From contig JAXDML010000010.1 in the NCBI GenBank assembly GCA_034666125.1, positions 52,260 to 116,259 of the forward strand: 64,000 nucleotides of DNA, in the 5' to 3' direction. The notes under the pieces were generated by a model, which was given only the letters and a program-made list of their open reading frames with translations, did no database searches and had not been told where the DNA came from. Origin of the DNA: Candidatus Parcubacteria bacterium (GTDB taxonomy: Bacteria > Patescibacteriota > Minisyncoccia > Phycocordibacterales > Phycocordibacteraceae). The translations under genes were made by a program, and so were the position numbers. Of the stretch, positions 1,325 to 52,640 are shown piece after piece; position 1 is the first letter of the stretch, and each line of letters opens with the position of its first letter.

Positions 1325-1397
1325 TTCTATATTGCATTTCTTGTCTCGGCTATACAAGAAAACGAAGGAATCATACAGATTGGTGCATTAAGTTGGA

Positions 1398-1425
1398 AAA
1401 AGCAGAAGCATTCGCTTCTGCTTTC
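1398..1425 (+). terminator. Hairpin aaaagcagaagc-attc-gcttctgctttc followed by T-rich tract; candidate terminator of the 386..1324 gene
   Basis: Inverted repeat gcagaagc/gcttctgc at 1402-1421, read directly. Confidence 0.4.
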
Positions 1426-1838: not shown

Positions 1839-4800
1839 ATGTCCTCGCTCCTTACTAACGATCTCATCTCAACGAAAGAGGCCTCGATCATTTCGGGATA
1901 CAATCCCGATTACCTCGCGCGTCTTTGTCGTGCCGGAGTGATTGCCGGAAAGAGGATCGGACGCACCTGGTGTCTCGAGCGAACGTCGCTCGACACGTTC
2001 ATTCGAACGCAACAAGCGCATAAGCAGGAGATTGCGCATACGCTTTCGGAAACGCGGAGCCGTGAATACCGCGAGGCGCATCAGGAGCCTGTCACTCCGG
2101 GAGTTCCTTCAGCAGAAAAAGCTGCTCCTGCCGCGTACGTGCCGCTCGTGCCCGCTCGAAGGAGTGTTCCGATACACCTGCGTCCCGGCTTCGCCTTCGC
2201 TCTCGCGCTCTGGGTGGTCGCTTTGAGCGGATATGCGTCGGTCTCGGACGCTTTTATAGGTACGGCACGGGATGCAGGCCGGCTTGCATACGATCTTGCG
2301 GTGGTGCGGGCCATAACGTACGACGGGCCGGCAGTATTCCTCGCCTCACGCGACGAGCCGGCGCCTAACGTGCCCGACCTGCATATTCCCGATCAGGACG
2401 TTCTTGTCGCGGAAGCCGCGCAGGTAGCGGCAAGCGATGTCACGCTTCCGGACATGGCTACGCGCCATAACGAATCGCGCAGCGCCGCAACGTTGGCGGG
2501 ATCGGTCGGCGCGTCGCGCATCGCTGCCGTATCGGCTTTCTTCCGTACGCCCGGCGCTTCGTTCGCGATGTTGCGCGATACCGGCGTCGGCGCATACGTG
2601 CGCATGGGAGCATCGATCGAGCGTTTCGCGCATGACACGCTCGTGCAGTATGCGACGACGGTTGAATCTGCCGGAGCGGATTCGCTCGAGCTCGCTTCCG
2701 CCGCGCGCGACATGGCCGCCTTCGCGCCCGCGCGCGCGGAGGCGATACGCATCGCGTACGAACGCGGCATCTATGCTTGGGTCGAAAGGACGCCGGATGT
2801 CGCACGCGGGATCACCGAGAGGACGCTCGCGCTCGGCGACGCGCTCGGGGGCGGGGCGACGCTCGCGCCAAACGTCGTCGGGAACGCGTCGCGCGATGTC
2901 GCGATCGCCGTGGCTGCGGGCATTGCCACTCCTACGCGAGGCCCTGTCGATAGCACGACGCCGACCGGGATAGCTGCTGCTTCCGACGCGCATCTCGCTG
3001 CGGGAGTCGCGGCCGCACCGGCAGCGCTCGTGCGCAGCCTGGAGCAGTCGGTCTTCTCCGCCGTGCGCGCCGCGCATATCGCGCTCACGGGAGGCGTACG
3101 CTTGCTTGCCGGTCTTTTCGACGACCTCTCCGTGGCGCTTACGTCTGCCCCCGAGAGGATCGTGACGATACTCACCCCGGCCGCATCCGGTCCAGGCGCC
3201 TATACCGCCACTACCACGAACACGACGTACGTCGACCGGTTCATCGGGGACACGACCGTCGTACGTAACTACTACCCGCAGACGTTCCTCGGGGGCGTGA
3301 GCCGGGAGGAGATAGACGCGCGGTTCACCGCCTTCGACAGCCTCATGCGCCGGAATATCGAATCTGCGCTCCGAAGACGGGGCGGAGGAGGGGGCGGCGG
3401 AGGCGGAGGCGGCAGCATTTCTCTGAATGATCCCACCTTCACGGGTACCCTCACGACGGACGACGCGGTCGTGAACAATAACCTTTCGGTAGGGAACGAT
3501 ACGACCATTGGCGGGAACCTGGATGTCGGCGGCGACGCGAATGTCACCGGCACGCTCACCGTGGGGTCCTTCAGCGTCTCGAACCTTTCGGCGAACAATA
3601 CGGTCGTGGCACCCCGCTTCATCGGCACGTCCACGAGCGAAGCGTCGGTATTCCCGAACATCATCGCGACGACGTCGGTCACGGACAACGCGACGTCCAC
3701 GAACCTGTACGCGACGAACTTCGGCATCGGGAACTCGTACTTCACGTCGCTCCTCGGCAACGGCCTCGTGAACACGGGAGGCATGCTGTCAGTATCGACC
3801 TCGTCGCTCGCGAGCGGATTCTTCCAGAACGGCGGGAACGCCTTCGGCGTCCCCGCCGTTCTCGGCACGACCGACAATCAGCCGCTCTCGCTCATCACGA
3901 ACAACACGACGGCTGCGACCATCCTCGGGAACGGCAATGTCGGCATCGGCACGACGTCGCCCTTTACCAAGCTCTCGGTCGGCGGCGATGCGTACGTCGG
4001 CGGGAACGTGACCGCGACCGGCACGGCGACCGTGCAGGGCCTTTCGATCGGATCGCTTTCCGGGTTCCTCAAGGCGACCGCCGGCACGGTGGCGACCTCG
4101 CTCGTGTCGCTCGCCTCCGACATCACGGGCACGCTTCCGGTCGGGAACGGCGGCACGGGCTCGACTTCGCTCACCGGACTCCTCGTCGGCAACGGCGCGA
4201 GCCCGGTGCAGACGGCATCGGTCACCGCGCCGCTCGTACTCACCGGCACGACGCTTTCCATAAACCAGGCGAACGCGTCGCAGGACGGTTATCTTTCTTC
4301 GACCGACTGGAACACTTTCAACAACAAGATCGCCTCGACCTCGCTTTCGGGTGGCACGGGCATCTCGTACAACCCCGCGACCGGCGTCATCACGAACACG
4401 GGCGTCACGTCGACGACAGGCGACTGGACCGGCACCTTCGACGGGCAGGAGGGAAGCTACTATCTCGCGAACTCGTTCAGTACGACCTCCGCCGCGTACT
4501 TCCTCTCGCAGAACGGCGGCTCGGCATTCTCGACCACTTCGGCCAATTACTGGCTCTCCACGAAATCCACGTCCGACCTTGCCGAGGGCTCGAACCTGTA
4601 CTACACCGACGGACGCGTAAATACGTTCATCAATGGATCTTCCACGATCCCAAAGACATACACGAATAACGTATTCACAGGCGGAAATACGTTCACGAAC
4701 GCCAGTTCCACCGATCTCTACGTAGCAAACACCTTCCGCGGCGCCGGCCTCACTGCCTGCAACACTTCGGCCAGCAAGCTTCTCTATGACGCCGTTACCG

Positions 4801-7800
4801 GCCAATTCAACTGCGGCGCGGATGCGGGAGCGGGCGGCGGTATCACTGCCATCGGTGCCCAGTACTCGCCATATCAGACAGGCTCAACCCAGACCTTCGC
4901 GACCACGAGCGACACGAACATAGGCCTCGTGATCACGTCGGCGGGCGACACCCATACCTTCACCCCGACCTTCACGGGCACGCTTGCGGTGCCCCGCGGC
5001 GGTACGGGAAGCAGCACGCTCTCCGGCATCCTTCTTGGCAATGGTGCGGGCCCCGTACAGACGCTCGGTATCGGTCCGGGACTCGCGCTTGCGGGCGGAA
5101 CGCTCTCCGTTTCCACGACTTCCTTCTCCGGTCCCGGCTCGAATTTCAATGCGGACCTCCTGGATGGCCAGGACGGGACCTACTACCTGGACCGCGCCAA
5201 CCATACCGGTACTCAAACCGCTTCGACCATCAGCGACTTCAATGCTGCAGTGAATACGTATATACACGGATCGACCACTATCCCGAAGACGTATACCGCG
5301 AACACCTTCACGGCCACGCAAACGTTCGGAAATCTCGTTGCGACGAATGCCACCACCACCTCCCTCGGCCTGAACAGCGAAACCTTCACCGACCTCACCG
5401 GTTCGGGACTTCTCAACGTCGGCGGTACTTTGACGCTGGACCGCACCGGGGACTGGACCGGCACGCTCGACGGACAGGAAGGCGCATACTACCTCGCCCG
5501 CGCGAATCACACGGGGACGCAACTCGCGTCGACCATCAGCGATTTCTCCACGACCGCCCGGGGGCTTTTCGCCGCCACCTATCCAATTCAATACGACAGC
5601 GGCACGGGCTTGTTCAACCTCGCTTTCGGCACCACTACCTCGAATACCTGGGCGGGCACGCAGACCTTCAACAACCTCGTCGCCACCAACGCGACCACGA
5701 CCAGCTTCGGCATCAACGGGGAGACCTTCACCGATCTGACGGGCTCGGGACTATCGAACGTCGGAGGGGTCCTCACGGTCTCCACATCCTCGCTCGCGAA
5801 CCTGAATGCCGATCTCCTCGATGGGCTCGACTCCACGTATTTCCTCGCGAACTCCTTCTCGACCACGTCCGCGAACCACTGGCTCACGACCAAGTCGACC
5901 ACGAACCTCGCTGAAGGATCGAACCTCTACTACACCGACGCACGGGTGAATAGCTATATACACGGCTCGACGACAATACCGAAGACCTATACGAACAATA
6001 CGTTCACTGGCACCCAGACCTTCAACAACCTCGTCGCCACGAACGCCACGACCACCTCGCTCGCCGTGGGCACGGACTACATCACCGACCTTACGGGCTC
6101 GGGCCTCACCATCACCGGAAATGCGCTCACATTGGATCGCACCGGGGACTGGACCGGTACGTTCGACGGCCAGGAAGGTACCTATTATCTAAACCGAGCG
6201 AATCACAGCGGTACGCAGCTCGCTTCCACGATCAGCGACTTCTCCGAAGCCACCGACGACCGCGTCGCCGTCCTCATACAAAACGGCACTGGCATCTCAT
6301 GGTCATACAACGACGGGGCGAACACTTTCACGCCGACGGTCACGCTCGCGCCGTTTACGACCACGAATCTCGCTGAGGGCAGCAATCTGTATTACACGGA
6401 CGGACGCGTTGCCTCGTACATCAACGCTTCCACCACCATATTGAACGACTCTACCGAAGCGGGACTTGAGACCTTCCTCACCGATGTCGCGAATGTCTTC
6501 ACCAACAACGATGGCGCGCTCTCAGACGACGACCTCAGCAATAATTCGATAGAGGATCTCTCCGACGTCGCCGCGATGACCGAGAACTATGGCGACCTCC
6601 TCGGGTGGAACGGTACGACCTGGACGGACTTCGCGACGAGTTCGCTAGGACTTATTACTTCAGCGGTCCAGAATATCGGTCCCGCCGGCCAAACTGCGGA
6701 CGGCCCCACGGTCACCTTCGCCACTACCACCTCAACCACCAACGGCATCACTTCGGCCCTCACCGTCACTGGCTCGGGAGATACCCTCACGTTCACCCCG
6801 TCGCAATCAGGAACCTTAACGGTTCCGGGCGGCGGCACCGGCGCCTCCTCCTTCACCGCCGGGAATCTCATATATGGCGCAGGCACCGGCGCGCTTCAAA
6901 GCGTCGCGACCTCCTCGGTCTCAAGCGGCACCGGCATCTCCTTCACTGGAACCCCTGGCGCGCTTGTCGGCGGAACGCCGCTCACGATCAGCAATACCGG
7001 CGTGCTCTCCTTCAACGGACGCACGGGAGCTGTTACACCGCAGTCAGGCGATTACACGACGACCATCGTGGCCGAAGGCACGAACCTTTACTACACCGAC
7101 GCACGGGTGAACAGCTACATACACGGCTCGACGACAATACCGAAGACCTATACCGCGAACACCTTCACTGCGCTTAATACATTCAGTGCGGGCGCTTCGA
7201 CTACCCAACTCACCGCTACTGGCAACGCGTATCTCGCGACGGCGGGAGGGAACGTAAGCGTCGGCGGCACTACTGCAAGCGAGAAGCTCACCGTCACCGG
7301 CAACATACTCTCGAGCAATCTTGCAGGCGTCGGCAACCGGTGCGTATACGCCGATCTCAACGGCGTCCTGCGCGTGGCGGCAGACAACTGCGGTCTCGCA
7401 GGCGCAGGCGGCGACGACCTGGGCAATCACATCGCTACGCAGAACATCCAGCTCAACAACAACTGGCTCTCGAACGACGGAGGAAGCGAAGGCGTCAGCA
7501 TAGATAACAGCGGAAACGTGACTATGTCCGGCGATGCTTCGGCGGCATCGTTCACCCGCGGCGGCGATACGATCACCGATTTCACGGGTACGGGACTTAC
7601 GGTGATAAGCGGCGCGCTCACCGTCTCGACCTCGTCGCTTGCGAACCTGAATGCCGATCTTTTGGATAGCCTTGATTCGACGTATTTCCTTGCCAATTCC
7701 TTCAGCACTACTTCCGCCAACTACTGGCTTACCACCAAGGATACCGACGATCTCGCGGAGGGAAGCACCAACCTCTACTACACCGACGGCCGCGTGAACA

Positions 7801-10800
7801 CCTTTATCGCGGGTTCCACTACCATCCCGAAGACCTACACGAACAACACATTCGGAGGCACCCAGACCTTCAACAACCTTCTCGCCACGAACGCTACGAC
7901 CACCAGCTTCGGCATCAACTCCGAGACCTTCACCGACCTCACTGGTTCAGGACTCCTCAACGTCGGCGGCACTTTGACGCTGGACCGCACGGGAAACTGG
8001 ACGGGGACGTTCGACGGGCAGGAAGGAACCTACTACCTCGCACGCGCGAATCACACGGGGACCCAACTCGCGTCGACCATTAGTGACTTCAACGATGCGG
8101 TCGCCAACTATGTCAACGCTTCCTCGACTATCCTCAACGACTCCACCGAAGCTGGCCTCGAAGCTTTCCTCACGGACGTCACGAACGTATTCACGAACAA
8201 CGACGGCGCGCTCAACGACGACGATTTGACCAACAATTCGATCGAAGACCTCTCTGATGTCGCGACCATGACCGAGAACTATGGCGATCTCTTGTACTGG
8301 AACGGTACCGCATGGGCAGACATTGCGACGAGTTCCTTGGGACTCCCAACCGCGAGCATCACGAACATCGGCCCTACCGGCCAGATGGCCGACGGTCCGA
8401 ATGTGACGCTTGCGACTTCAACGAGCGCATTCAACGGCCTCACTTCTTCGCTCACCATCACAGGAAGCGGCGATACTCTTACCTTCGTTCCGGCACTCTC
8501 CGGCACCCTCAACAACGCTGGCCTCACTAACTCCACCGTCTCGTACGGCGGCGTGACGCTTTCTCTCGGTGGAAGCGATGCAACTCCGGCCTTCGACCTG
8601 ACCGATGCGACGAACCTTCCGATCGTCGGCGGCACGACCGGTACTCTGACGGTCCCGCGCGGCGGCACGGGCCAGGTTTCGTTCACCGCCAGCAACCTTA
8701 TATATGGAGCAGGTACGGGGGCACTCCAAAGCGTCGCTACTACCACCGTCTCAGCAACCGGGCCCCTCTCCTTCACCGCGAATCCCGTCGTCATCGGCGC
8801 ATCCCCGATCACGCTCTCTCTGGGGACGGTCGATATATCGTCGAATACGAACCTCGCGGCGACGTATCCGATCGTTCTCACCGGGGATACGCTCTCCCTC
8901 GCCTTCGGCACCACCACCTCGAACACCTGGGCGGGTACCCAGACGTTCAACAACCTCGTCGCGACGAACGCCACGACAACATCCCTCGGCCTTAACGGCG
9001 AAACCTTCACCGACCTCACTGGCAGCGGCCTCTTGAACGTCGGTGGCACTTTGACGTTGGACCGCACCGGCGACTGGACGGGGACGTTCGACGGGCAGGA
9101 GGGAAGTTATTACTTAAATCGTGCCAACCATACTGGTACTCAAGCTGCTTCCACGATCAGCGACTTCTCCGAAGCCACCGACGACCGTGTCGCCGTCCTC
9201 ATACAAAACGGTACTGGTATCAGCTGGTCATACAACGATGGCGCGAACACCTTCACGCCGACCGTGACCCTCGCACCGTTCACTACCACGAACCTCGCGG
9301 AAGGCACGAATCTCTACTACACCGATGCACGGGTGAATTCCTTCGTGCACTCTTCGACCACCATCCCGAAAACCTACACTGCGAACACCTTTACGGGAGC
9401 ACAGACGTTTAACGGCGGACTCACCCTCGGAACCTTGAACGGCCCGCTGCAAGCGAACAACGGAATTGTCTCTGCCACAACCAGCATTGGCGTTCTGTAT
9501 GGAGGAACCGGCCTCACTATCGCGCCGACGTACGGACAGCTTTTGGTAGGGAATTCAAGCGGAGGGTACACCCTTACCTCAACCTCTTCACTCGGGCTTA
9601 TCACCCAGGCAGTCCAAAACATCGGCCCGGCAGGGCAGATGGCCGACGGGCCGAACGTCACGTTCGCTACTTCGACTGCGTCCTTTAACGGCCTTACCCA
9701 GGGCATAACCATCACCGGAAGCGGTGACACCATCACGTTCACGCCATCCCTGTCGGGTACTCTCGGTGTCGGCGGGGGAGGCACCGGCGCTGCCTCCTTT
9801 GCGTACGGTCTCGTGCTTTCTCCGGGAGGCACCGGAGCCCTCACCAATATAGCGACTTCCTCCCTCGGCCTCCTCACAACGAACGTCGCCGAAGGAAGCA
9901 ATCTGTACTTCACCGATGAACGCGTCGACGACCGCGTCGCCGTCCTCATACAAAACGGTACGGGCATCTCCTGGAGCTACAACGACGGTGCCAACGCCTT
10001 TACGCCGACCGTGACCTTGGCGCCCTTTACGACGACCAATCTCGCAGAAGGCAGCAATCTGTATTATACGGATGCACGTGTCGCCTCATATATAAACGCC
10101 TCCACCACCATACTCAACGACTCCACAGAAGCTGGTCTTGAAGCCTTCCTCACGGACGTCACGAACGTGTTCACCAACAACGACGGTACCTTAGCCGATG
10201 ACGATCTCACCAACAACAGCATCGAAGACTTGAGTGACGTCGCGGCAATGACCGAGAACTATGGCGATCTCCTCTATTGGAACGGCAGTGCGTGGGCGGA
10301 TATCGCCACTTCCTCGCTCGGACTCCTCTCCACAGCCGTCACTAACATCGGTCCTGCGGGCCAGATGGCGGACGGCCCCACAGTCACCTTCGCCACCACC
10401 ACCTCGACCACCAACGGCATCACCTCGGCGCTCACCATCACGGGTTCGGGAGATACCCTCACCTTTACTCCGTCGCAGTCGGGAACTCTCACTGTTCCTG
10501 GAGGCGGCACGGGAGCCACCTCCTTCACCGCCGGGAACCTCGTCTATGGCACGGGAACCGGCGCACTTCAGAGCGTGGCGACGACGACTCTCTCGGGAAA
10601 TTCCCAGATCGCGCTCTCTCAGCCAGTGGTCGTGATCGGCGCGTCACCTTCTGTCCTCTCTATCACCGCCGACTCCATCGGAGACGCGCAGCTCGCCTTC
10701 AACACCGGGCAGAACCTGACGACCGCGTCGAGCCCGACGTTCGCGAGCCTTACGCTCACGAATCCGCTCGCGGTAACCTCAGGCGGTACCGGGTGGGCGG

Positions 10801-13800
10801 CCATACAGGCAGGTGCGATCCCGTATGGAAACGGTACGGGAGCGCTTGCGACCACGACTGCGGGCACCAACGGAAATATCCTCGCCCTCTTGAACGGCAT
10901 TCCGACCTGGACCTCGACCTCGACATTCCTGCTTGAGACGGAAGTCGATACCGAAGCCGAACTCGAGACGCTCCTCACCGATGTTACGAACGTCTTCACG
11001 AACAACGACGGCGCTCTTGCTGACGACGACCTCACTAATAACTCCATCGAAGACCTCTCGGACGTCGCCGCCATGACCGAGAACTATGGCGACCTGCTCT
11101 ATTGGAACGGAACCGCGTGGGCGGATATCGCCACTAGTTCCCTCGGCCTCGTGACAAGCGCGCTCACCTCGATCGGTCCGGCAGGGCAGCAACAGACCGG
11201 TCCTGCCATCACCCTCGCAAGCTCCACTGCAGGAACGGACTTCACCATCACCGCCGCAGGGAACACAGTGACGTTCAATCTCCCGACCGCTTCGGCTACG
11301 AATCGTGGCTTGCTATCAAGCGCCGATTGGTCGACCTTCAACGGCAAGGAGAACGTGCTTTCCTTCACCTATCCGCTGGTGCGCACGGTTAACAACATCT
11401 CCCTCGCCTTCGGCACGACGACCTCGAACACCTGGGCGGGCACCCAGACGTTCAACAACCTCGTCGCCACGAACGCAACCACGACTTCCTTCGCTATCGG
11501 AAGCGATTACATCACCGACCTCACAGGCTCCGGTCTCACGGTGACCGGAAACGCACTCACCCTCGACCGCACCGGCGACTGGACCGGTACCTTCGACGGC
11601 CAAGAAGGCACGTACTATCTCGCACGCGCCAATCACACCGGGACGCAACTGGCGAGTACGATCAGCGACTTCTCCGAAGCCACCGACGACCGCGTCGCCG
11701 TCCTCATCCAGAACGGCACCGGCATCTCGTGGAGCTACAACGACGGCGCGAACACGTTTACGCCGACCGTGACCCTCGCACCGTTCACCACAACCAACCT
11801 CGCGGAAGGCACGAACCTCTATTACACGGATGCACGGGTGAACAGCTATATCGCGGCCTCCACCACCATCCCGAAGACGTATACCTCTAATACGTTCACC
11901 GGGCTCCAGACCCTGAACGGAGGACTCACGCTCGGCACACTCAACGGCCCGCTCCAAGCGAACGTGGGCGTCGTCTCCGCAACGACCAGCATTGGCGTTC
12001 TGTATGGAGGAACCGGCCTCACTATCGCGCCGACGTACGGACAGCTCCTCGTGGGCAATGCCTCGGGAGGGTATACGCTGACGGCGACGTCGAGCTTGGG
12101 ACTGGCCTCCGCAGCGACCGCCTTCATCCAGAACGGCAACTCGTTCGGCGCGACCGCCGTACTTGGTACCAACGACGCGAACGACCTCCAGTTCGAGACG
12201 AGCGGTACGACGAAACTCACGATCCTCCAGAACGGCAACGTCGGCATCGGCACGACGACTCCGTCGAATCTTTTGCATGTCTTTTCTTCCTCCGCAAGCC
12301 CCCGTATTCGCGCAGAAACTTCACTCACGAGCGGATCGAGCGGATTTACCGCAGCAGGAGAAAGTACCACGGGTTTCGCGTCGTTCAGTTGGAATAATTC
12401 AGGCGCAGCGAATTCGACTTTCTTAACGTTACCGAATGCCGGACTCGTACGGGCAGGTTCAGGAGCATCCGGTGGGCTGGTTCTGGTCAATGAAAATACT
12501 TCCGCGCCCATTATCTTTGCGACGGGAGGAAGTTCCTTCAGCAACGAACGGTTGCGCATCGACAGCGCAGGCAATGTCGGTATCGGCACGACTACGCCGT
12601 TCACGATGCTTTCGGTAAATGGGAACATAGCAGGGAATCATCTCGTCCCGAACGGCGCCTACACGGATAACCTGTCTCCGTACGATCTCGGCGCGATCGG
12701 GAGCCGATGGAATGCGCTCTGGGCCGGAACGCTCAACATCGGCACAAGCACGTGGAGCATCAATAACGGGAGCGATGGAAGGCTCAGTGTGTTCGATGCG
12801 GCATCAGGCGGCGGCACTGAACGATTCTCAATACTTACGAACGGTAACGTCGGCATAGGCTCGACCACGCCATTCGCCAAACTGTCGCTTGCTGGGGGCA
12901 ATTTCTGGCAGACAGCCGGTGATCCGGTGATCGCAAGCAGTACTGACACGACCGCTGCGGTGAACGGAGTCTATGTCGCCGGCAGATATGCCTACCTGAC
13001 GCCGAACTCCGCGAGCCCCGGGCTCGTCATCATGGATGTTTCCAATCCGAGAAGTCCCGCTCAGGTCGGCTCAGCTAACACGACCGGTAACGCTAAGAGG
13101 GTCGTTGTTTCCGGAAGGTACGCCTACGTGCTCTCGGCTCGGCTACACATCTTCGACGTCACGAATCCGGCGAGCCCTTCCGCGGTGGGGAACTACAATC
13201 CCGGTGTCAACATACCGAACGACATATGGGTGTCGGGCAAGTACGCTTACCTCGCACGCAGTAACTTCAGCACGGGCGCCGGTTCCCTGGCCATCGTAGA
13301 CCTTTCGAATCCTGCACTCCCGATAGCGGTCAGTAGTATAAACTCTCCGGACAGCACACGGCCTTTCAATTCCATTTATGTATCGGGCAGATATGCCTAC
13401 GTCGGAACGACGGAAGTATCCGGCACCACGGGCAGGCTCTATATTTATGACATTTCGAATCCGACCGCACCGAGCCTTGTTGGAACCTTCAACGCGACCA
13501 ACCGCGTGACCGGCGTCTATGTTTCGGGCAGATATGCCTACTTATCAGGACTCGGAACGACGTCGGGGCTCGAGATCGTGGACGTTTCAAATCCCGCGTC
13601 CCCAGCGCTTGCCGGTTCCTTCAACACGGCGAATGACGCTATGCGCGTACAGGTGTCGGGCAACTACGCCTACATCGCCGAGGCCGGGACCACGGACGGT
13701 ATCGTCGTGGTCGACGTGTCGCAACCGGGCAGTCCAGTGCAGGTCGGGTCCTACACCACCGCCAATAGCGCCAATAACCTCTACGTGTCAGGCAAGTACA

Positions 13801-16800
13801 TCTACGTCGCGACCAACGGCACTACTGGCGGATTCCAGGTACTTGATGCGGGAGGAGCGCAGCTGCCGCTTGCAAGTATAGGAAATATAAATACCAACCT
13901 GCTTACAGTGGACGAGAACGCGAACTTCGGCGGCGAAATCTATGCGCAAGGCGGCATCAACGCCGGTATCTCCGGCATCTTCTCGCGTGGCACAATCTCC
14001 GCGTACGTCGCATCGTCGACTCAAACCAATCCCACGGTCGCCAACTTCATGGGTGGTTCGGTCGGCATCGGTACGACAACGCCATATGCGGCGCTTTCGG
14101 TGGTCGGGATCAACACCGCCGTGCCGACGCTCTCGATCAAACCGGCGGCGTCGCAAACAGCAAATATTCTCGACCTTTACACGTTCGGCTCACTTACGTC
14201 AGTCATCGATGCGGCGGGTAACTGGGGCATCAGTACCACCTCTCCCTGGAAAACGCTCTCGGTCGGTGGTGATTTTTCGCTCACTGGCGCGTTCTTTGAT
14301 AGTGGAGCATCCTCGGGGACGAACGGCATGGTGCTCCAGACCACCGGGTCGGGCACGCAATGGGTCGCCACTTCGTCGCTCGGCATCAGCGCCGGCCTCA
14401 CGGGCTCCGGCTGCTGCGGTCAGGTCGCGTATTGGAACGGTGCGAGTTCCCTTACCGGTGACGCGGCCTTCACGTTCGACGGCACGAACCTCTCGCTCGG
14501 TACCGGCCAGTACCTGGTCACCGATTCGGAAGGCGCTCCCGGCTACTCCTGGACGGGGGACACGACGACCGGCATATATCACGCGGGTGCCAGCACGATC
14601 GGCTTCTCGACCGGCGGGATCGAACGGATGCGCATAGACGGGAACGGCTATCTCGGCATATCGACGACATCGCCGGGACAGATGCTATCGGTGGAAGGAG
14701 ACGCATACATAAGCGGCGCCACGGTGATCGGGGATACCGGGCTTCCGCTCGTCGGTCCAGCGCTTACCGTGAACGGCTTTACGGGCATCGCTTCCTCATC
14801 GCCCTGGGGCCTGCTCTCGGTGAATCCGAACGCAATCGGTACCGCTCCCTCCTTCGTCGTCGGTTCCTCGAGCGCAACGAACTTCATTGTCGCGAACGGC
14901 GGCAGCGTGGGGATCGGTATGACGGCACCCTCATCGCGGTTCCAGGTGGCCGATATCAATAGGTTGTCGGGCACGTCGGTAAGTTCGGCCGGTTTTGGAA
15001 ACACGAATCTCTCGGTCTACACGACTGATGCAGCAGCTACCAACGTGGGAGCCGTCATTGGGCTCGGAGGAGCGAACCTATACGGCGGTCTGAAGGGCGC
15101 AAGTCAGAGCGGCACTTCAGCCGGATACCTTGGCTTCTATACGAATTCCTTCAGTATCATCACTGGGAACACGTTCGCAGAGCGAGCCCGTATAACGTCT
15201 AGCGGCCAGCTTGGCATCGGAACGACCACGCCGTTCGGCCTGCTGGCGGTCGCCGGGCCTATCGCTGGCAATCATATCATCCCGAATGGTCCATATACCG
15301 ATAATCTTTCTGCGTACGACCTTGGCGCAACCGGAAGCCGCTGGAACGCGCTGTGGGCCGGTACGGTCAATATCGGCACGAGTACCTGGAGCATCAATAA
15401 TGGCAGCGATGGACGACTATCGTTCTTCGACGCCGCATCGGGCGGCGGGAACGAGCGCCTCTCCCTGCTTACGAACGGGAATGTCGGCATCGGTACGACT
15501 AGTCCTGCGGCCCGTCTCGCCATTACAAGCAATGCAGCCATTACAAGCGATAGCATCGATACGTACTTAGCAAACACCGTGAATGCTGGAACTGTGTCGG
15601 GTACGGATCGACTTATTACTGGCAACTATACTACGCTTTCCCCTACAGTTACGCTTGAAGGCGCTACCCTAAGCGCTATCGCAAATAAAACACTAGTTAA
15701 TGCTGGAAACGTTACTCTTGGCAGTACCGCGCTCTCTGGTGTTTCAGGAAGTCTCATTGGAGACTCTATAGAAGTTACCGGGAGCCCCATATTTAACGAC
15801 CCGGATGGTAACGACGAGCTGAATGCCACGTTTATCGGAACCCAATCTTATGTCAACCTTGTACCCTCGGTTACCAGTGTCTCAGGCGGTAACCTAGCTT
15901 CGTATGGAGGATTGTTCACTAACTCTTCTTCCAACAGTAGCGGCAACCTTGGTGCCGGCGCGTACGGAGTTTCAGCGTTAGTAGGTGGCAACCCTCTTGT
16001 TAATGGATATCGTTACGGTTTTTATTCCACAGTTTCAGGTACATCTAACGAAAACACGGGTTACTGGGGAGCCGTTAGTGGAGGCACGGGTTCAAACTAC
16101 GGCTCAACTCTTATTGTCAGCGGTGGAGCCGTCAGTAATTACGGAAACTACGTGGGCATAAGCGGAGGTAATAACAATTACGGGTCGTATATATCCCTAC
16201 AAGCTAGTTCTACCAACTATGCGATTTATGCGACAGGTGGCGCGCAAAGCTATTTTTCTGGGAACGTCGGTATTGGTACCACCACTCCGTGGGCAACACT
16301 TGCGGTAAATCCAGTCGCTGGGGGAGCATCGAACGCTTTCGCCATCGGCTCTTCAACAGCTACGAGGTTCTTGGTGACTAACGGTGGAAATGTCGGTATC
16401 GGCACTACCACCCCAGGCACCCTCCTCTCGCTTGGAGACACCGGTGCGAACACAATCAATATTTCGGCTACGGCGACCTCGACATTCGGCAGCGGTATCA
16501 ACATCCGGACGGGCTGCTTTGCGGTGAACGGAGTGTGCGTCGGCGGAGGCGGAGGCGGGACGATAAACTCTGGAACGACCGGCCAGTTCCCGTACTACGC
16601 CGCGAACGGCACGACGCTCACGGCGACCTCGACGCTGCTCGTATCTACGGCATCGAACGTCGGTATCGGTACCACTACTCCTTCCGCACGACTCGCCATC
16701 ACGGGTACCGGTACGGGTACCGGACGAGCCTTCGCCATCGCGAACTCGTCCGACGCTGAACGGCTTTCGGTTCTCGATAACGGCAGTACCGCCATCATAA

Positions 16801-18953
16801 GCAGCTCGGCTACGGCATTCACTGTCGGTCCAAGCGGCGCGACGAATCCCGTGCTTACCTTAAACGCTTCCACGGGAAGCGGCGTGACCGGTATATCGAT
16901 AACCAACGGGACTACGGGTGGCACTACCGCTATCGTAGCGACCGATTCAGGCTCCAACTCGTCCCTAAGCATTAACCCGAAGGGAACCGGCACCCTTAAT
17001 TTGGGCACGACAAATACGGGTAACGTTGCTATAGGAAACAACTCAGCAGGGTCCAATATAAATGGATCCTCCGTCGCACTACGTGTAGCCGGCTCTGATC
17101 GTATAAGTCATATAGGATCTGCGGTCGCCTTTACAGTCACAACAGCCGCTACGGCGTCATCCATCCGCTATTCCTTTGCCGGTGCTGCAGATACGAACCT
17201 CACTGCCTCAACCGAAGCTCCAAGCACCTACTTCAATCTCGGCCAGACCCGTCAGCACGCGACTGGCGCGTTGACGCTTCAGCGCGACTTCCGCATCACG
17301 CCTTCCACGCACTCCTTCGCCGGCGCCTCGGCGCTGACGACCGCCGCTACTTTCGCCCTCGATTCCGGCCCCATCGGCAGCACGAACGCGACCATCAGCA
17401 CGTCGACCGCGCTCCTCATCGGCGGTGTTGGCAGCACCGCGCTTGCCAATACGACCAACGGCTACGGCCTCATGGTCTTCGCGCCGACCGGCGCCACCAA
17501 TAACTACGGCGCGTCGTTCGTGACCGGCAACGTCGGCGTTGGTACGACCTCGCCGTGGAGCAAGTTCTCGGTTACGGGTACCGGCGCCTGGGACGGTCTC
17601 GCGGGAACCGGCGATACGCTTCCGCTCTGTATCAATAACACTACGAAGGAGATCGTCGCGAAGGCGACTGGCGCGTGTACGACCGGCTCGGACGCCCGGC
17701 TGAAGGAGAACATCGTACCGCTGCGGGATTCGTACGGCCTTTCCTCGATCGATGCGCTCCGTCCGGTGGAGTTCGACTACAAGGACCCTTCGTTCGGTAC
17801 AGGTCACCAGGAAGGCCTCATCGCCCAGGAGGTCTTGAGCATCTTCCCGAATCTCGTGAGTACGTCGACGCCGACCAGATTCACGCCCGATGTGACCTAT
17901 ACCCTCAACTACCAGGGGCTCGTGATCCCGATGGTAAAAGCGATCCAGGAGCTGTCCGGACGTACCAGCGCGCTCTCGCTCGCCACGTCGACGCTGTCAG
18001 TGCGCCTTGGCGTGGTCGAAGCCGGCCTGGCTGACGCAAACGGAACCACGGTCGGACCTATAACAGCGACTACGCTGAGCGCAGATTCGGCCAACGTGCG
18101 CGGTACCGTACATGCCGCGCGCGTAACGGCTGACGCATTCATGAGCGCGCCGCGCTACTTCGCTCCGGATACGGAAGAATCGTTCGCGGTCGGCTCGACG
18201 ACCCAGATCGTGCACGCGCCGGCCGAAGCGCTCACGTCCTCCGGCGTCGATATCTATAAGCTCGCGACGTACAGCATCGCCCGTATCCAGTCGCTCGAAG
18301 GCCGTATGAGCGAGTTCGCCTCGCGCCTCGATCTTATCGATGCGCGTCTTGCCGCACTTGAGAGCCAGGCAGGCACTGGTCTCGGCGGGCTCTTCGCCGG
18401 CGCATTCGAAAACGTGGACGCGATCGTCGAGAACGGCATCGCGTACTTCAGGAACATCAAGATCGGCTCGCTCCTGGTCGCGAAGAACGACAACGGCACC
18501 TCCGCAGCCGGAGTAGGCACCATCCTGGAAGGGAATACCGTGGTCGAGATCGCGAACCCCCTCGCGCGTCCTTCAAGCAAGATATTCATCACCCTTACGT
18601 CGCCGCTCGAAGGCTCGTGGTACCTCTCCGACAAGGGAGACGGCAGCTTCCGCGTCAGACTTTCGCAAGCGCAGTCGTCGGACGTGACGTTCGACTATTT
18701 CATCGTCCAGACGGAAGGGAACGACCAGACGCCGCAACCGCCGCAGGAAGGGGACGAGCCTCCGCCACCTGACCCAGAGCCGAACCCAGAGCCGAACCCA
18801 GAGCCAGAGCCGACTCCGACACCAACCCCCGAGCCGGAACCAGAACCAACGCCCGATCCTGAGCCGGCTCCGAACCCAGAGCCGGAGCCGGAGCCGGAGC
18901 CCGAACCGACCCCGGAACCTGAACCTGCTCCGGAACCACCTCCCGCGCCCTAA
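1839..18953 (+). CDS. Giant (5704 aa) membrane-anchored surface fibre/adhesin: N-terminal HTH_17-like domain, single TM helix, Ala-rich stalk, poly-Gly, about 8 kb of tail-fibre-like tandem repeats, LVIVD beta-propeller, Peptidase_S74 intramolecular-chaperone autoprocessing domain, (EP)n tail
   Basis: Single uninterrupted ORF in the supplied six-frame track with strong GC3 codon bias. N-term 'LISTKEASIISGYNPDYLARLCRAGVIAGKRIGRTWCLERTSLDTFI' (HTH). TM 'GFAFALALWVVALSGYASV'. Repeated 'NVGIGTTTPxxxLSV', 'GGTG', 'LAEGSNLYYTDGRVN' motifs. Seven 'YAY...hhDVSNP' LVIVD repeats. 'TGSDARLKENIVPL' S74 motif. C-terminal PEPEPTP run. Confidence 0.85.
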   Translation: MSSLLTNDLISTKEASIISGYNPDYLARLCRAGVIAGKRIGRTWCLERTSLDTFIRTQQAHKQEIAHTLSETRSREYREAHQEPVTPGVPSAEKAAPAAYVPLVPARRSVPIHLRPGFAFALALWVVALSGYASVSDAFIGTARDAGRLAYDLAVVRAITYDGPAVFLASRDEPAPNVPDLHIPDQDVLVAEAAQVAASDVTLPDMATRHNESRSAATLAGSVGASRIAAVSAFFRTPGASFAMLRDTGVGAYVRMGASIERFAHDTLVQYATTVESAGADSLELASAARDMAAFAPARAEAIRIAYERGIYAWVERTPDVARGITERTLALGDALGGGATLAPNVVGNASRDVAIAVAAGIATPTRGPVDSTTPTGIAAASDAHLAAGVAAAPAALVRSLEQSVFSAVRAAHIALTGGVRLLAGLFDDLSVALTSAPERIVTILTPAASGPGAYTATTTNTTYVDRFIGDTTVVRNYYPQTFLGGVSREEIDARFTAFDSLMRRNIESALRRRGGGGGGGGGGGSISLNDPTFTGTLTTDDAVVNNNLSVGNDTTIGGNLDVGGDANVTGTLTVGSFSVSNLSANNTVVAPRFIGTSTSEASVFPNIIATTSVTDNATSTNLYATNFGIGNSYFTSLLGNGLVNTGGMLSVSTSSLASGFFQNGGNAFGVPAVLGTTDNQPLSLITNNTTAATILGNGNVGIGTTSPFTKLSVGGDAYVGGNVTATGTATVQGLSIGSLSGFLKATAGTVATSLVSLASDITGTLPVGNGGTGSTSLTGLLVGNGASPVQTASVTAPLVLTGTTLSINQANASQDGYLSSTDWNTFNNKIASTSLSGGTGISYNPATGVITNTGVTSTTGDWTGTFDGQEGSYYLANSFSTTSAAYFLSQNGGSAFSTTSANYWLSTKSTSDLAEGSNLYYTDGRVNTFINGSSTIPKTYTNNVFTGGNTFTNASSTDLYVANTFRGAGLTACNTSASKLLYDAVTGQFNCGADAGAGGGITAIGAQYSPYQTGSTQTFATTSDTNIGLVITSAGDTHTFTPTFTGTLAVPRGGTGSSTLSGILLGNGAGPVQTLGIGPGLALAGGTLSVSTTSFSGPGSNFNADLLDGQDGTYYLDRANHTGTQTASTISDFNAAVNTYIHGSTTIPKTYTANTFTATQTFGNLVATNATTTSLGLNSETFTDLTGSGLLNVGGTLTLDRTGDWTGTLDGQEGAYYLARANHTGTQLASTISDFSTTARGLFAATYPIQYDSGTGLFNLAFGTTTSNTWAGTQTFNNLVATNATTTSFGINGETFTDLTGSGLSNVGGVLTVSTSSLANLNADLLDGLDSTYFLANSFSTTSANHWLTTKSTTNLAEGSNLYYTDARVNSYIHGSTTIPKTYTNNTFTGTQTFNNLVATNATTTSLAVGTDYITDLTGSGLTITGNALTLDRTGDWTGTFDGQEGTYYLNRANHSGTQLASTISDFSEATDDRVAVLIQNGTGISWSYNDGANTFTPTVTLAPFTTTNLAEGSNLYYTDGRVASYINASTTILNDSTEAGLETFLTDVANVFTNNDGALSDDDLSNNSIEDLSDVAAMTENYGDLLGWNGTTWTDFATSSLGLITSAVQNIGPAGQTADGPTVTFATTTSTTNGITSALTVTGSGDTLTFTPSQSGTLTVPGGGTGASSFTAGNLIYGAGTGALQSVATSSVSSGTGISFTGTPGALVGGTPLTISNTGVLSFNGRTGAVTPQSGDYTTTIVAEGTNLYYTDARVNSYIHGSTTIPKTYTANTFTALNTFSAGASTTQLTATGNAYLATAGGNVSVGGTTASEKLTVTGNILSSNLAGVGNRCVYADLNGVLRVAADNCGLAGAGGDDLGNHIATQNIQLNNNWLSNDGGSEGVSIDNSGNVTMSGDASAASFTRGGDTITDFTGTGLTVISGALTVSTSSLANLNADLLDSLDSTYFLANSFSTTSANYWLTTKDTDDLAEGSTNLYYTDGRVNTFIAGSTTIPKTYTNNTFGGTQTFNNLLATNATTTSFGINSETFTDLTGSGLLNVGGTLTLDRTGNWTGTFDGQEGTYYLARANHTGTQLASTISDFNDAVANYVNASSTILNDSTEAGLEAFLTDVTNVFTNNDGALNDDDLTNNSIEDLSDVATMTENYGDLLYWNGTAWADIATSSLGLPTASITNIGPTGQMADGPNVTLATSTSAFNGLTSSLTITGSGDTLTFVPALSGTLNNAGLTNSTVSYGGVTLSLGGSDATPAFDLTDATNLPIVGGTTGTLTVPRGGTGQVSFTASNLIYGAGTGALQSVATTTVSATGPLSFTANPVVIGASPITLSLGTVDISSNTNLAATYPIVLTGDTLSLAFGTTTSNTWAGTQTFNNLVATNATTTSLGLNGETFTDLTGSGLLNVGGTLTLDRTGDWTGTFDGQEGSYYLNRANHTGTQAASTISDFSEATDDRVAVLIQNGTGISWSYNDGANTFTPTVTLAPFTTTNLAEGTNLYYTDARVNSFVHSSTTIPKTYTANTFTGAQTFNGGLTLGTLNGPLQANNGIVSATTSIGVLYGGTGLTIAPTYGQLLVGNSSGGYTLTSTSSLGLITQAVQNIGPAGQMADGPNVTFATSTASFNGLTQGITITGSGDTITFTPSLSGTLGVGGGGTGAASFAYGLVLSPGGTGALTNIATSSLGLLTTNVAEGSNLYFTDERVDDRVAVLIQNGTGISWSYNDGANAFTPTVTLAPFTTTNLAEGSNLYYTDARVASYINASTTILNDSTEAGLEAFLTDVTNVFTNNDGTLADDDLTNNSIEDLSDVAAMTENYGDLLYWNGSAWADIATSSLGLLSTAVTNIGPAGQMADGPTVTFATTTSTTNGITSALTITGSGDTLTFTPSQSGTLTVPGGGTGATSFTAGNLVYGTGTGALQSVATTTLSGNSQIALSQPVVVIGASPSVLSITADSIGDAQLAFNTGQNLTTASSPTFASLTLTNPLAVTSGGTGWAAIQAGAIPYGNGTGALATTTAGTNGNILALLNGIPTWTSTSTFLLETEVDTEAELETLLTDVTNVFTNNDGALADDDLTNNSIEDLSDVAAMTENYGDLLYWNGTAWADIATSSLGLVTSALTSIGPAGQQQTGPAITLASSTAGTDFTITAAGNTVTFNLPTASATNRGLLSSADWSTFNGKENVLSFTYPLVRTVNNISLAFGTTTSNTWAGTQTFNNLVATNATTTSFAIGSDYITDLTGSGLTVTGNALTLDRTGDWTGTFDGQEGTYYLARANHTGTQLASTISDFSEATDDRVAVLIQNGTGISWSYNDGANTFTPTVTLAPFTTTNLAEGTNLYYTDARVNSYIAASTTIPKTYTSNTFTGLQTLNGGLTLGTLNGPLQANVGVVSATTSIGVLYGGTGLTIAPTYGQLLVGNASGGYTLTATSSLGLASAATAFIQNGNSFGATAVLGTNDANDLQFETSGTTKLTILQNGNVGIGTTTPSNLLHVFSSSASPRIRAETSLTSGSSGFTAAGESTTGFASFSWNNSGAANSTFLTLPNAGLVRAGSGASGGLVLVNENTSAPIIFATGGSSFSNERLRIDSAGNVGIGTTTPFTMLSVNGNIAGNHLVPNGAYTDNLSPYDLGAIGSRWNALWAGTLNIGTSTWSINNGSDGRLSVFDAASGGGTERFSILTNGNVGIGSTTPFAKLSLAGGNFWQTAGDPVIASSTDTTAAVNGVYVAGRYAYLTPNSASPGLVIMDVSNPRSPAQVGSANTTGNAKRVVVSGRYAYVLSARLHIFDVTNPASPSAVGNYNPGVNIPNDIWVSGKYAYLARSNFSTGAGSLAIVDLSNPALPIAVSSINSPDSTRPFNSIYVSGRYAYVGTTEVSGTTGRLYIYDISNPTAPSLVGTFNATNRVTGVYVSGRYAYLSGLGTTSGLEIVDVSNPASPALAGSFNTANDAMRVQVSGNYAYIAEAGTTDGIVVVDVSQPGSPVQVGSYTTANSANNLYVSGKYIYVATNGTTGGFQVLDAGGAQLPLASIGNINTNLLTVDENANFGGEIYAQGGINAGISGIFSRGTISAYVASSTQTNPTVANFMGGSVGIGTTTPYAALSVVGINTAVPTLSIKPAASQTANILDLYTFGSLTSVIDAAGNWGISTTSPWKTLSVGGDFSLTGAFFDSGASSGTNGMVLQTTGSGTQWVATSSLGISAGLTGSGCCGQVAYWNGASSLTGDAAFTFDGTNLSLGTGQYLVTDSEGAPGYSWTGDTTTGIYHAGASTIGFSTGGIERMRIDGNGYLGISTTSPGQMLSVEGDAYISGATVIGDTGLPLVGPALTVNGFTGIASSSPWGLLSVNPNAIGTAPSFVVGSSSATNFIVANGGSVGIGMTAPSSRFQVADINRLSGTSVSSAGFGNTNLSVYTTDAAATNVGAVIGLGGANLYGGLKGASQSGTSAGYLGFYTNSFSIITGNTFAERARITSSGQLGIGTTTPFGLLAVAGPIAGNHIIPNGPYTDNLSAYDLGATGSRWNALWAGTVNIGTSTWSINNGSDGRLSFFDAASGGGNERLSLLTNGNVGIGTTSPAARLAITSNAAITSDSIDTYLANTVNAGTVSGTDRLITGNYTTLSPTVTLEGATLSAIANKTLVNAGNVTLGSTALSGVSGSLIGDSIEVTGSPIFNDPDGNDELNATFIGTQSYVNLVPSVTSVSGGNLASYGGLFTNSSSNSSGNLGAGAYGVSALVGGNPLVNGYRYGFYSTVSGTSNENTGYWGAVSGGTGSNYGSTLIVSGGAVSNYGNYVGISGGNNNYGSYISLQASSTNYAIYATGGAQSYFSGNVGIGTTTPWATLAVNPVAGGASNAFAIGSSTATRFLVTNGGNVGIGTTTPGTLLSLGDTGANTINISATATSTFGSGINIRTGCFAVNGVCVGGGGGGTINSGTTGQFPYYAANGTTLTATSTLLVSTASNVGIGTTTPSARLAITGTGTGTGRAFAIANSSDAERLSVLDNGSTAIISSSATAFTVGPSGATNPVLTLNASTGSGVTGISITNGTTGGTTAIVATDSGSNSSLSINPKGTGTLNLGTTNTGNVAIGNNSAGSNINGSSVALRVAGSDRISHIGSAVAFTVTTAATASSIRYSFAGAADTNLTASTEAPSTYFNLGQTRQHATGALTLQRDFRITPSTHSFAGASALTTAATFALDSGPIGSTNATISTSTALLIGGVGSTALANTTNGYGLMVFAPTGATNNYGASFVTGNVGVGTTSPWSKFSVTGTGAWDGLAGTGDTLPLCINNTTKEIVAKATGACTTGSDARLKENIVPLRDSYGLSSIDALRPVEFDYKDPSFGTGHQEGLIAQEVLSIFPNLVSTSTPTRFTPDVTYTLNYQGLVIPMVKAIQELSGRTSALSLATSTLSVRLGVVEAGLADANGTTVGPITATTLSADSANVRGTVHAARVTADAFMSAPRYFAPDTEESFAVGSTTQIVHAPAEALTSSGVDIYKLATYSIARIQSLEGRMSEFASRLDLIDARLAALESQAGTGLGGLFAGAFENVDAIVENGIAYFRNIKIGSLLVAKNDNGTSAAGVGTILEGNTVVEIANPLARPSSKIFITLTSPLEGSWYLSDKGDGSFRVRLSQAQSSDVTFDYFIVQTEGNDQTPQPPQEGDEPPPPDPEPNPEPNPEPEPTPTPTPEPEPEPTPDPEPAPNPEPEPEPEPEPTPEPEPAPEPPPAP
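3376..3411 (+). repeat. (GGN)11-12 codon run encoding poly-Gly inside the giant gene; slippage-prone
   Basis: ggcggaggagggggcggcggaggcggaggcggc read directly. Confidence 0.7.
4400..12100 (+). repeat. Zone of nested tandem coding repeats inside the giant gene (at least three families, 170-230 bp each, about 4-5 diverged copies per family)
   Basis: Family A (LNDSTEAGLEAFLTDVTNVFTNNDGAL..DDDL.NNSIEDLSDVAAMTENYGDLLYWNG..W.D.ATSSLGL) at about 6439-6655, 8141-8345, 10115-10325, 10957-11150. Family B (ETFTDLTGSGLLNVGGTLTLDRTGDWTGTFDGQEGSYYLARANHTGTQLASTISDF) at about 5380-5550, 6085-6250, 7920-8095, 8995-9170, 11510-11670. Family C (SEATDDRVAVLIQNGTGISWSYNDGANTFTPTVTLAPFTTTNLAEG.NLYYTD.RV) at about 6240-6420, 9165-9340, 9910-10085, 11655-11840. 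Confidence 0.8.
12610..12850 (+). repeat. Copy 1 of a duplicated 240-bp coding segment (IAGNHLVPNGAYTDNLSPYDLGAIGSRWNALWAGTLNIGTSTWSINNGSDGRLS...)
   Basis: Near-identical peptide recurs at 15245-15490. Confidence 0.7.
12955..13860 (+). other. LVIVD-repeat beta-propeller domain of the giant protein (7 blades)
   Basis: Repeats 'GRYAYLTP..GLVIMDVSNP', 'GRYAYVLS..LHIFDVTNP', 'GKYAYLAR..LAIVDLSNP', 'GRYAYVGT..LYIYDISNP', 'GRYAYLSG..LEIVDVSNP', 'GNYAYIAE..IVVVDVSQP', 'GKYIYVAT..FQVLDAGG'. Confidence 0.75.
15245..15490 (+). repeat. Copy 2 of the duplicated 240-bp coding segment (IAGNHIIPNGPYTDNLSAYDLGATGSRWNALWAGTVNIGTSTWSINNGSDGRLS...)
   Basis: See the copy at 12610-12850. Confidence 0.7.
17640..18010 (+). 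other. Peptidase_S74 / intramolecular chaperone autoprocessing domain (tail-spike and endosialidase C-terminal type)
   Basis: 'CTTGSDARLKENIVPLRDSYGLSSIDALRPVEFDYKD...GHQEGLIAQEVLSIFPNLV' contains the S-D-x-R-x-K-x-N-I hallmark. The predicted cleavage Ser is near codon 5284. Confidence 0.7.
18769..18950 (+). repeat. Low-complexity gagccN/gaaccN repeat encoding the (E/D/N/T-P)n tail PEPNPEPNPEPEPTPTPTPEPEPEP...
   Basis: Read directly. Confidence 0.8.
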
Positions 18954-22140: not shown

Positions 22141-22160
22141 CGCGTGGTATCCTTTCGTTG

Positions 22161-52633: not shown

Positions 52634-52640
52634 AAGTCCG

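Follow-up and report, generated by a model that had tools for sequence, protein, structure and literature searches.

A giant Patescibacteria protein that joins a helix-turn-helix domain and a single hydrophobic segment to a fibre-like body, and its conserved two-gene locus

The window analysed here, 64,000 nucleotides from a 253-kb contig (JAXDML010000010.1) of a Candidatus Parcubacteria bacterium, carries two genes between the core genes gatB (3′ end at 17–325) and gap (19018–20037). The larger is an open reading frame (ORF) of 5704 codons, deposited as the 'hypothetical protein' MEA2701859.1; the smaller (386/434–1324) separates gatB from the giant ORF and was overlooked, together with its conserved synteny, in the original prediction for this DNA, which was otherwise right in placing the giant ORF between gatB and gap. 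We read the giant ORF as the larger half of a two-gene locus that Patescibacteria conserve and inherit vertically, and its product combines parts that are each of a known kind, as a membrane-bound helix-turn-helix (HTH) protein fused to a phage-type fibre. The features of the giant gene, in window coordinates and with amino acid (aa) positions in brackets, are as follows.

1839–18953, forward strand: giant ORF, 5704 aa
1866–2012, forward strand: excisionase/MerR-type winged HTH, predicted cytoplasmic (aa 10–58; HTH_17, family matches, AlphaFold2 (AF2) and Foldseek)
1980–2084, forward strand: long alpha-helix, predicted cytoplasmic (aa 48–82; AF2 and family alignment)
2184–2243, forward strand: single hydrophobic segment, transmembrane (TM) anchor or signal-peptide h-region (aa 116–135; hydropathy, AF2 and family)
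2274–3413, forward strand: Ala-rich juxtamembrane region (aa 146–515), kept in close relatives alone and closing with a Gly run at 3381–3413
3636–12188, forward strand: Thr/Gly/Ser/Asn-rich fibre body with diverged repeats (aa ~600–3450; repeat comparison)
13140–13868, forward strand: LVIVD beta-propeller (aa ~3768–4010; Pfam LVIVD, 7 stretches, E 4e-51)
14217–15542, forward strand: phage tail-fibre-like region (aa ~4127–4568; PHROG 9942, E 1.4e-18; PHROG 18345, E 1.3e-13)
17688–17858, forward strand: Peptidase_S74 intramolecular chaperone (aa 5284–5340; Pfam E 8.4e-13, cutoff 22 bits)
18495–18707, forward strand: small C-terminal beta-sandwich, confidently modelled and family-conserved (aa ~5553–5623; AF2 and alignment)
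18756–18950, forward strand: Pro/Glu-rich tail after the beta-sandwich

As had been claimed, the reading frame is uninterrupted: ORF translation gives no internal stop between 1839 and 18953, and the start does not lie far past the HTH. ATG 1839 is the earliest start codon downstream of an in-frame TAG at 1818, and orthologues begin at matching residues (M..LL..LIST.EAS), in agreement with this start. The internal repeats are at most 90% identical as protein, and the repeat copies detected in the DNA are merely 60–82% identical, which makes a collapse of the assembly or of short reads unlikely. The GC content of the region (~0.58–0.65) is host-like, also as claimed.

Matched to the giant protein alone, the Pfam profile HTH_17 (PF12728) covers aa 10–58 with a sub-threshold score (E 2e-4, 22 bits against a cutoff of 27; profile positions 2–50 of 51), and the TIGR01764 excisionase profile gives E 2e-3. 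The family and the predicted fold nevertheless settle the matter in favour of the original prediction, which had placed an HTH_17-type domain at the N-terminus. HTH_17 matches all 40 of the 40 aligned family N-termini at E ≤ 0.01 (best E 1.4e-9), relatives carry this match as precomputed annotation, and the AF2 model of aa 1–150, built on this 40-sequence alignment, reaches a predicted local distance difference test (pLDDT) score of 97–98 over aa 10–80. The modelled elements (a strand at aa 9–11, helices at 12–19 and 23–32, hairpin strands at 37–40 and 43–47, and the long helix at 48–82) give the HTH a beta-alpha-alpha-beta-beta winged-helix fold; a linker at aa 83–115 is modelled with low confidence, and a further helix occupies aa 116–135. 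The best matches of aa 7–58 in the PDB are TraN/AM32 (pIP501), Pukovnik Xis, RdfS, BldC, RacA and MerR-type regulators, with a Foldseek probability of 1.00 for TraN, Pukovnik Xis, RdfS and BldC, and the domain belongs to the excisionase/MerR-type superfamily. These five proteins, TraN, Xis, RdfS, BldC and RacA, are the best counterparts to the domain by both sequence profile and fold, but they are soluble and have neither a fused TM segment nor an extracellular body.

The family signature of the HTH is ..S.KEAS..SGY..DYL.RLCR.G.I.G...GR.W, in which G20, Y21, D24, Y25, R28, R31, G41 and W44 are invariant or nearly so. The basic residues of the recognition helix and wing are kept in the family, the nearly invariant R28 and R31 among them, and the mean net charge of the HTH core across the family is ~+3. 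The long helix that follows carries one conserved face (S50, L51, F54, Q58, K62, L69, R73, E76 and Y77). The chances that the HTH does or does not bind nucleic acid seem to us evenly divided.

A hydrophobic stretch at aa 117–135 is the sole strong hydropathy peak in the entire giant protein. Arginines at aa 107–108 and 115 precede the segment and an Asp lies behind it, and the family mean of Lys plus Arg is 2.25 in the 15 residues before the segment versus 1.00 after it; given this bias, the HTH should be cytoplasmic (N-in). The segment reads RPGF-AFALALWVVAL-SGYAS, and its end is an AxA-like motif conserved in the family, which resembles a signal-peptidase I site and could equally be a small-residue packing motif. 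The single TM helix originally proposed is thus borne out insofar as a single hydrophobic segment, helical in the AF2 model, follows the HTH, but this segment has the look of a cleavable signal peptide no less than of an anchor.

Beyond the segment, no Pfam match reaches its cutoff in the fibre body at aa ~600–3450. The LVIVD region is also matched by Beta_propel (E 1.8e-5) and by the NCBIfam profile choice_anch_B (2.3e-13, below its cutoff), and the tail-fibre-like region at aa ~4127–4568 contains repeated GNVGIGTT motifs. In the S74 domain the catalytic-type dyad is intact, with Ser5284 and Lys5289 (five residues past Ser) in the motif SDARLK; this motif occurs in 14 family members, and its S, D, R, L and K are invariant in an 8-sequence C-terminal alignment. 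There are 421 residues from Ser5284 to the C-terminus, which self-cleavage at S74 is predicted to free, and ~360 residues lie past the Pfam S74 match. The best Foldseek matches of the C-terminal AF2 model are the MyRF ICA domain (7dc3, E 6e-5), the endosialidase chaperone 3gw6 and phage tailspikes; from this low-confidence model we used just the S74 match and the small beta-sandwich. The C-terminal region is common to 23 top family representatives and the S74 region to 13, and the C-terminus of the giant protein belongs to the S74 intramolecular-chaperone family. The tail-fibre-like exterior expected to end in LVIVD and S74 domains was recovered with both domains in Pfam and with PHROG matches, except that the place of the LVIVD propeller is the final third of the protein, not its end. 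No YadA-type C-terminal anchor was found in the giant protein with Pfam, the phrase 'trimeric autotransporter adhesin' being merely the source label of one relative (P0078). We consider it probable that the giant protein is a surface fibre.

The kinship of the N-terminal module was examined with a profile of aa 1–145 of the giant protein plus one close relative (P0001) in an exhaustive HMMER search. With this profile, 4152 cluster representatives scored E ≤ 1e-3, 844 of them E ≤ 1e-10 (clusters at 50% identity) and 16 E ≤ 1e-30, where a word-indexed homologue search had given zero matches with aa 1–145 and one with aa 1–500. Among the best 150, the profile match spans residue 1 to ~135, and a hydrophobic segment follows the HTH in 130, in 25 of them at position 165 or later, including versions with tandem HTHs; the 20 members without a segment are mostly short fragments. 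The tandem arrangement, two HTHs before a TM at about residue 165–235, is seen in a subset of the family (P0006–P0011, P0033–P0035, P0078 and others) and recalls the internal dimer of TraN. Besides the giant protein itself, 58 of the other 149 best members are at least 1000 aa long and 15 at least 4000 aa, the longest reaching 7275 aa, so that proteins of more than 2000 aa with such an N-terminus do exist elsewhere in the Patescibacteria, for which candidate phyla radiation is another name.

Genome loci (29) were gathered with a 7-sequence alignment, and all but one carry a Patescibacteria-type label or 'uncultured bacterium'. The exception (L027, CAZERL010000008.1; 40% identity, E 1e-15) comes from a bin labelled 'uncultured archaeon' and is probably mislabelled. 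Relatives bear automatic source names such as 'tail fiber domain-containing', 'DUF5011 domain-containing', 'trimeric autotransporter adhesin', 'HTH domain-containing', 'helix-turn-helix domain-containing' and 'hypothetical'. Judged by these sequences, giant proteins headed by an HTH and a TM segment are common across Patescibacteria. Limited full-text and keyword checks of the literature found no description of this architecture, and within those checks the suggestion that it had not been described before appears right.

The partner gene and the DNA elements of the locus are listed below.

434–1324, forward strand: small HTH-TM partner gene, ~300 aa (the ORF opens at 386, with the conserved start MDELTI at 434; family hidden Markov model)
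406–417, forward strand: 12-mer CGAGACGAGAAA in the conserved promoter region of the small gene
1336–1360, forward strand: conserved hairpin TTTCTTGTCTCGGCTATACAAGAAA just past the small-gene stop, with an inverted 12-mer inside (1337–1348, reverse strand)
1399–1428, forward strand: strong terminator-like hairpin between the two transcription units (−18.4 kcal/mol, z −5.07)
1760–1817, forward strand: promoter-like region of the giant gene (Box A at 1760–1768; −10-like TATTAT at 1812–1817)
1818–1838, forward strand: Box B, TAGGTAAATCGGATATCCGAC, candidate operator or element of the 5′ untranslated region (UTR), abutting ATG 1839

The small gene gave no Pfam match at 1e-3, yet its product is recognised by the hidden Markov model of the family (A2-HMM) with E 3.7e-15. 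The protein consists of MDELTIGDKIYISSKRAAAITGYAKDYVGQLCREGHVEAKMVGRSWYV, a strongly acidic linker of ~180 aa, the basic stretch RRARRPKSRK, a TM segment ending in GSGFA and 26 residues outside; its exterior tail (..FLGGTS..K) is conserved, at 23–36 aa across orthologues, and its TM closes with a G-S/T-G-Y/F-A motif, as that of the giant protein does. Of the 29 Patescibacteria genome loci, 24 have gatB, the small gene and the giant gene in this order, which recurs in independent Joint Genome Institute (JGI) contigs (L030–L032). At least 1523 homologous clusters (90% identity) exist for the small protein, and among the 120 listed all are nameless or called 'hypothetical protein'. In two of the JGI contigs with an identical small protein, L030 and L031, the giant gene is called at 4246 versus 3831 aa, which implies strain-level variation in fibre length or differences in the assembly of repeats.

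The gap between the small and giant genes is always 464–755 bp long and AT-rich, and contains conserved DNA blocks outside which the intergenic regions hardly align. Chief among these blocks is Box B, which includes a perfect 12-bp palindrome, TCGGATATCCGA, at 1826–1837. Its consensus, TAGTTAATTCGGATATCCGAC, ends at the ATG of the giant gene or, in one clade, 10–18 nt before a TTG start, and 24 of the 25 regions in the comparison, to which the window belongs, have it, with one copy, rarely two, per locus. Almost no change is seen in the outer TCGG/CCGAC; the four bases at the centre vary. Exact Box B occurs in a single copy in the window, and AATTCGGATATCCGAC has at least 120 exact matches in the public metagenome contigs scanned. 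Among the 120 listed, 16 precede a detected family HTH ORF and a few more share the same upstream context, while ~100 fall in unrelated (coding) sequence; each listed copy in a promoter-like context stands before a family HTH gene. We therefore discarded the idea that Box B marks a general regulon. Folded as RNA, it is about as stable as shuffled sequences (z −0.53), which weakens the idea of a stable RNA hairpin and slightly favours a protein-binding site. By inspection, its spacing and the variable central four bases also misfit a sigma-28-like or leaderless −10 element.

Upstream of Box B, a −10-like TAnnAT lies 22–28 nt before the giant-gene start in the loci compared, preceded by Box A, TTATCCCCA in the window and TTATCCACA in many relatives (consensus yTATCCmCA). 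The distance from Box A to Box B, downstream of it, is 56 nt in most loci; the window has 66 nt. We take Box A to equal the DnaA-box consensus, and DnaA-linked control of the giant gene could follow; an origin of replication (oriC) in the AT-rich gap was rejected, there being just one Box A per locus.

The promoter-like block of the small gene comprises CGAGACGAGAAA and, in the stretch at 419–433, a −10-like TATACT that ends 6 nt before ATG 434; nearly all loci examined show the same spacing to the small-gene start, which suggests that the small-gene mRNA is leaderless. The short leader of the giant gene is likewise without a Shine-Dalgarno-like sequence. The 12-mer CGAGAC(G/A)AGAAA flanks the small gene in inverted orientation (406–417 on the forward and 1337–1348 on the reverse strand), with compensatory changes between loci, and this arrangement might serve as a pair of operators, as an antisense promoter or for 5′–3′ RNA pairing. 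Hairpins analogous to that at 1399–1428 occur in other loci. Neither the intergenic gap nor the 12-mer hairpin element had a match in Rfam, and a sigma-70/terminator scan of the gap was uninformative. A 53-aa gene called in the gap of L030–L032 was rejected, since it is not conserved and spans a terminator hairpin.

Taken as a whole, the locus is read here, tentatively and at somewhat less than an even chance, as encoding a membrane-anchored trimeric surface fibre whose cytoplasmic HTH feeds back at its own locus. The protein would be exported by way of its single N-terminal hydrophobic segment, with aa 1–115 left in the cytoplasm, and its exterior of ~5500 aa would fold as a phage-tail-fibre-like trimer, nucleated by the C-terminal S74 chaperone, which would then cut itself off at Gly5283/Ser5284. 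Chaperones of this type that nucleate trimer folding and then cleave themselves are known from endosialidase-type fibres, and it is because such fibres work in this way that a trimer with S74-nucleated folding is proposed. The product would be a long surface fibre bearing the LVIVD propeller, most plausibly attaching to host cells or surfaces. On the cytoplasmic side, the winged HTH and the conserved helix behind it would most likely bind DNA, jointly or in competition with the small partner's paralogous HTH. They would probably do so at the palindrome, situated over the transcription start or in the 5′ UTR of the giant gene, and at the inverted 12-mers on either side of the small gene. Transcription of a very costly gene could in this way respond, by feedback, to how much N-terminal module is inserted in the membrane. 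Nucleic-acid binding at the own locus is favoured because the fold matches are to DNA-binding proteins, the basic residues are conserved and a gene-specific palindrome lies at a repressor-like position. That the HTH binds Box B itself for feedback is possible, though we hold it with considerable doubt.

Several observations weigh against this reading. A trimeric fibre would present three HTHs, and the palindrome points to a dimer. Across highly divergent genomes and between paralogues the HTH surface hardly changes, which would fit a conserved protein partner as well. The stem of Box B is invariant and just its 4-nt loop varies, so that a small 5′-terminal RNA hairpin is equally compatible with it. 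The C-terminal AF2 model, built on the 8-sequence alignment, is poor (pLDDT 48.5). Finally, the hydrophobic segment consists of R/K, a short hydrophobic core of 11–12 residues and G/S-G/S-A-Y/A-A-A/S, and 70 of 135 members have an A.A motif no more than 11 residues from the core, where shuffles give 42.8 ± 4.5; signal peptidase could, to judge from this pattern, sever the HTH from the fibre at the A-x-A-like site. One version of events builds on such a cut, and we regard it as a long shot: a leader that stays behind, in which the fibre would be freed by a signal-peptidase cut behind the conserved AYA-like motif, with an HTH-TM remnant of ~133 aa remaining in the membrane. Each exported fibre would then leave one remnant with the architecture of the small partner, remnants and partner would bind the palindrome and the 12-mers, and the cell would count its exported fibres and shut off or tether the 17-kb gene. 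Secretion would be coupled to transcription in a way not described before and conserved across Patescibacteria.

Against the feedback reading stand further accounts of what the HTH might do. The original prediction invoked the logic of ToxR and CadC, in which binding to the fibre or a pull on it, as might come with host attachment, would alter the oligomeric state or DNA affinity of the HTH and switch a transcriptional programme. The layout does conform, since ToxR, TcpP and CadC likewise have an N-terminal cytoplasmic DNA-binding-type domain, one TM and an extracytoplasmic remainder with no separate kinase; a conserved operator-like palindrome is present, and in an ultra-small cell the chromosome is always near the membrane. 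However, their DNA-binding domain is an OmpR/PhoB-type winged helix (Trans_reg_C) and their sensor small and periplasmic, whereas the giant protein has an HTH_17 domain and a fibre of 5500 aa, with no sensor-type domain detected and nothing to indicate that the fibre transmits a signal. The sole motif found sits at the gene's own start, and with the listed metagenome copies in promoter-like context all preceding the same gene family, no regulon is visible beyond it. The disordered 33-aa linker (aa 83–115) and the possible signal-peptidase site also oppose mechanical coupling, and we consider signalling of this kind unlikely. A somewhat stronger case, if still on the improbable side, can be made for a serious rival, an HTH that is not a DNA binder at all, and is instead a RodZ-like protein-interaction domain that positions the fibre or the large folded n-region of a cleavable signal peptide. 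In the latter form it would target giant substrates to a secretion site, as YSIRK, ESPR and KxYKxGKxW leaders do, and the HTH-TM remnant would resemble the small partner. That a cytoplasmic HTH with a TM can bind protein (MreB) and not DNA is known from RodZ, with which the giant protein shares an HTH domain of ~80 aa, a basic juxtamembrane stretch and a single TM. RodZ differs in having an XRE-type HTH (HTH_25), a C-terminal DUF4115 and no fibre, and neither HTH_25 nor DUF4115 appeared in Pfam scans of the giant protein or the family N-termini. The signal-peptide-like layout of basic residues, an 11–12-aa h-core and then G/S-G/S-A-Y/A-A-A, with its A.A motif enriched over shuffles, agrees with this account, as do the shared closing motif of the small partner's TM, the near-invariance of the entire HTH and of one face of the next helix, and the fact that one module heads bodies differing greatly in length and content. 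It sits less well with a fold whose best structural matches are DNA-binding proteins and whose recognition-helix and wing basic residues are kept, and it leaves the conserved palindrome at the gene start unexplained. From its sequence, the giant protein would work most like these bitopic HTH proteins (ToxR/CadC and RodZ), while lacking the domains by which membership of either group is recognised.

The HTH could also serve as a chromosome-to-envelope tether, RacA-like or as a transertion lock, that holds the 5′ end of its own gene, and hence the nucleoid, at the membrane site of fibre export. The fold matches include RacA, a long helix comes after the HTH in the module, there is a single dedicated site at the gene's own start, and the locus is conserved and core-like; the proposal is purely inferential, though, the one copy (rarely two) per locus is no centromere-like array of sites, and the small partner's role is left unexplained, so that we deem it quite improbable. 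An artefact, whether an assembly chimera or repeat collapse that makes a false giant ORF or a chance HTH match, might be suspected in a metagenome-assembled genome with a repetitive body and a sub-cutoff single-sequence HTH score. It is extremely improbable, given that dozens of independent assemblies share the N-terminal module, and many also the C-terminal region, at 2000–7275 aa, that the repeats have diverged as described, and that family and structure prediction confirm the HTH. S74 tail fibres and tailspikes of the endosialidase type, and bacterial 'tail fiber domain-containing' proteins, share with the giant protein the Ser/Lys dyad, the GNVGIGTT-type repeats and the PHROG and 3gw6/tailspike matches. 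The giant gene differs from phage fibre genes in being chromosomal and in a core-gene context, and its product in carrying HTH and TM in place of a virion-attachment domain, in being 5–10 times longer and in extending ~360 residues after the S74 match, through the conserved beta-sandwich and the Pro/Glu tail. To our knowledge, eukaryotic MYRF is the only characterised protein that has a DNA-binding domain, a TM and S74/ICA together, and the MyRF ICA is the top fold match of the C-terminal region. In MYRF, however, the ICA is cytoplasmic, between DNA-binding domain and TM, and its cleavage releases a transcription factor; in the giant protein S74 cleavage cannot free the HTH, because the S74 domain lies ~5150 residues past the TM, on the outside.

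A large part of bacterial diversity is accounted for by Patescibacteria, whose usual way of life is attachment to other cells, and the construction and control of their surface are still poorly understood. The locus described here is a conserved, core-like and wholly unannotated system, whose giant gene occupies 17 kb, a sizeable share of a genome that is likely very small, and in which a DNA-binding-type domain is joined directly to a surface fibre and accompanied by a partner protein and gene-specific DNA motifs. Should the HTH read DNA, gene expression would be coupled to envelope assembly or attachment in a new way; should it not, the module would represent a new class of cytoplasmic anchor or folded secretion leader with which giant proteins are equipped. 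In either case, the present reading offers a first functional hypothesis for more than 800 clusters of the module (50% identity) and more than 1500 clusters of the small partner (90% identity).

Housekeeping genes otherwise fill the window, among them gatB, gap, rpiB, rpe, pheT, gyrB, thrS, dnaE and a split transketolase. Three ORFs, at 33423–35720 (forward strand, 765 aa), 52509–53711 (reverse strand, 400 aa) and 62958–63998 (reverse strand, 346 aa), are without a Pfam match at 1e-5. The transketolase is divided into two forward-strand ORFs, one (22158–23018) for the N-terminal half and one (23370–24398) for the pyrimidine-binding and C-terminal half. A pilin-like gene with an N_methyl motif (20877–21374, forward strand; E 6.5e-9) is the third gene past the giant ORF and lies between rpiB and rpe.

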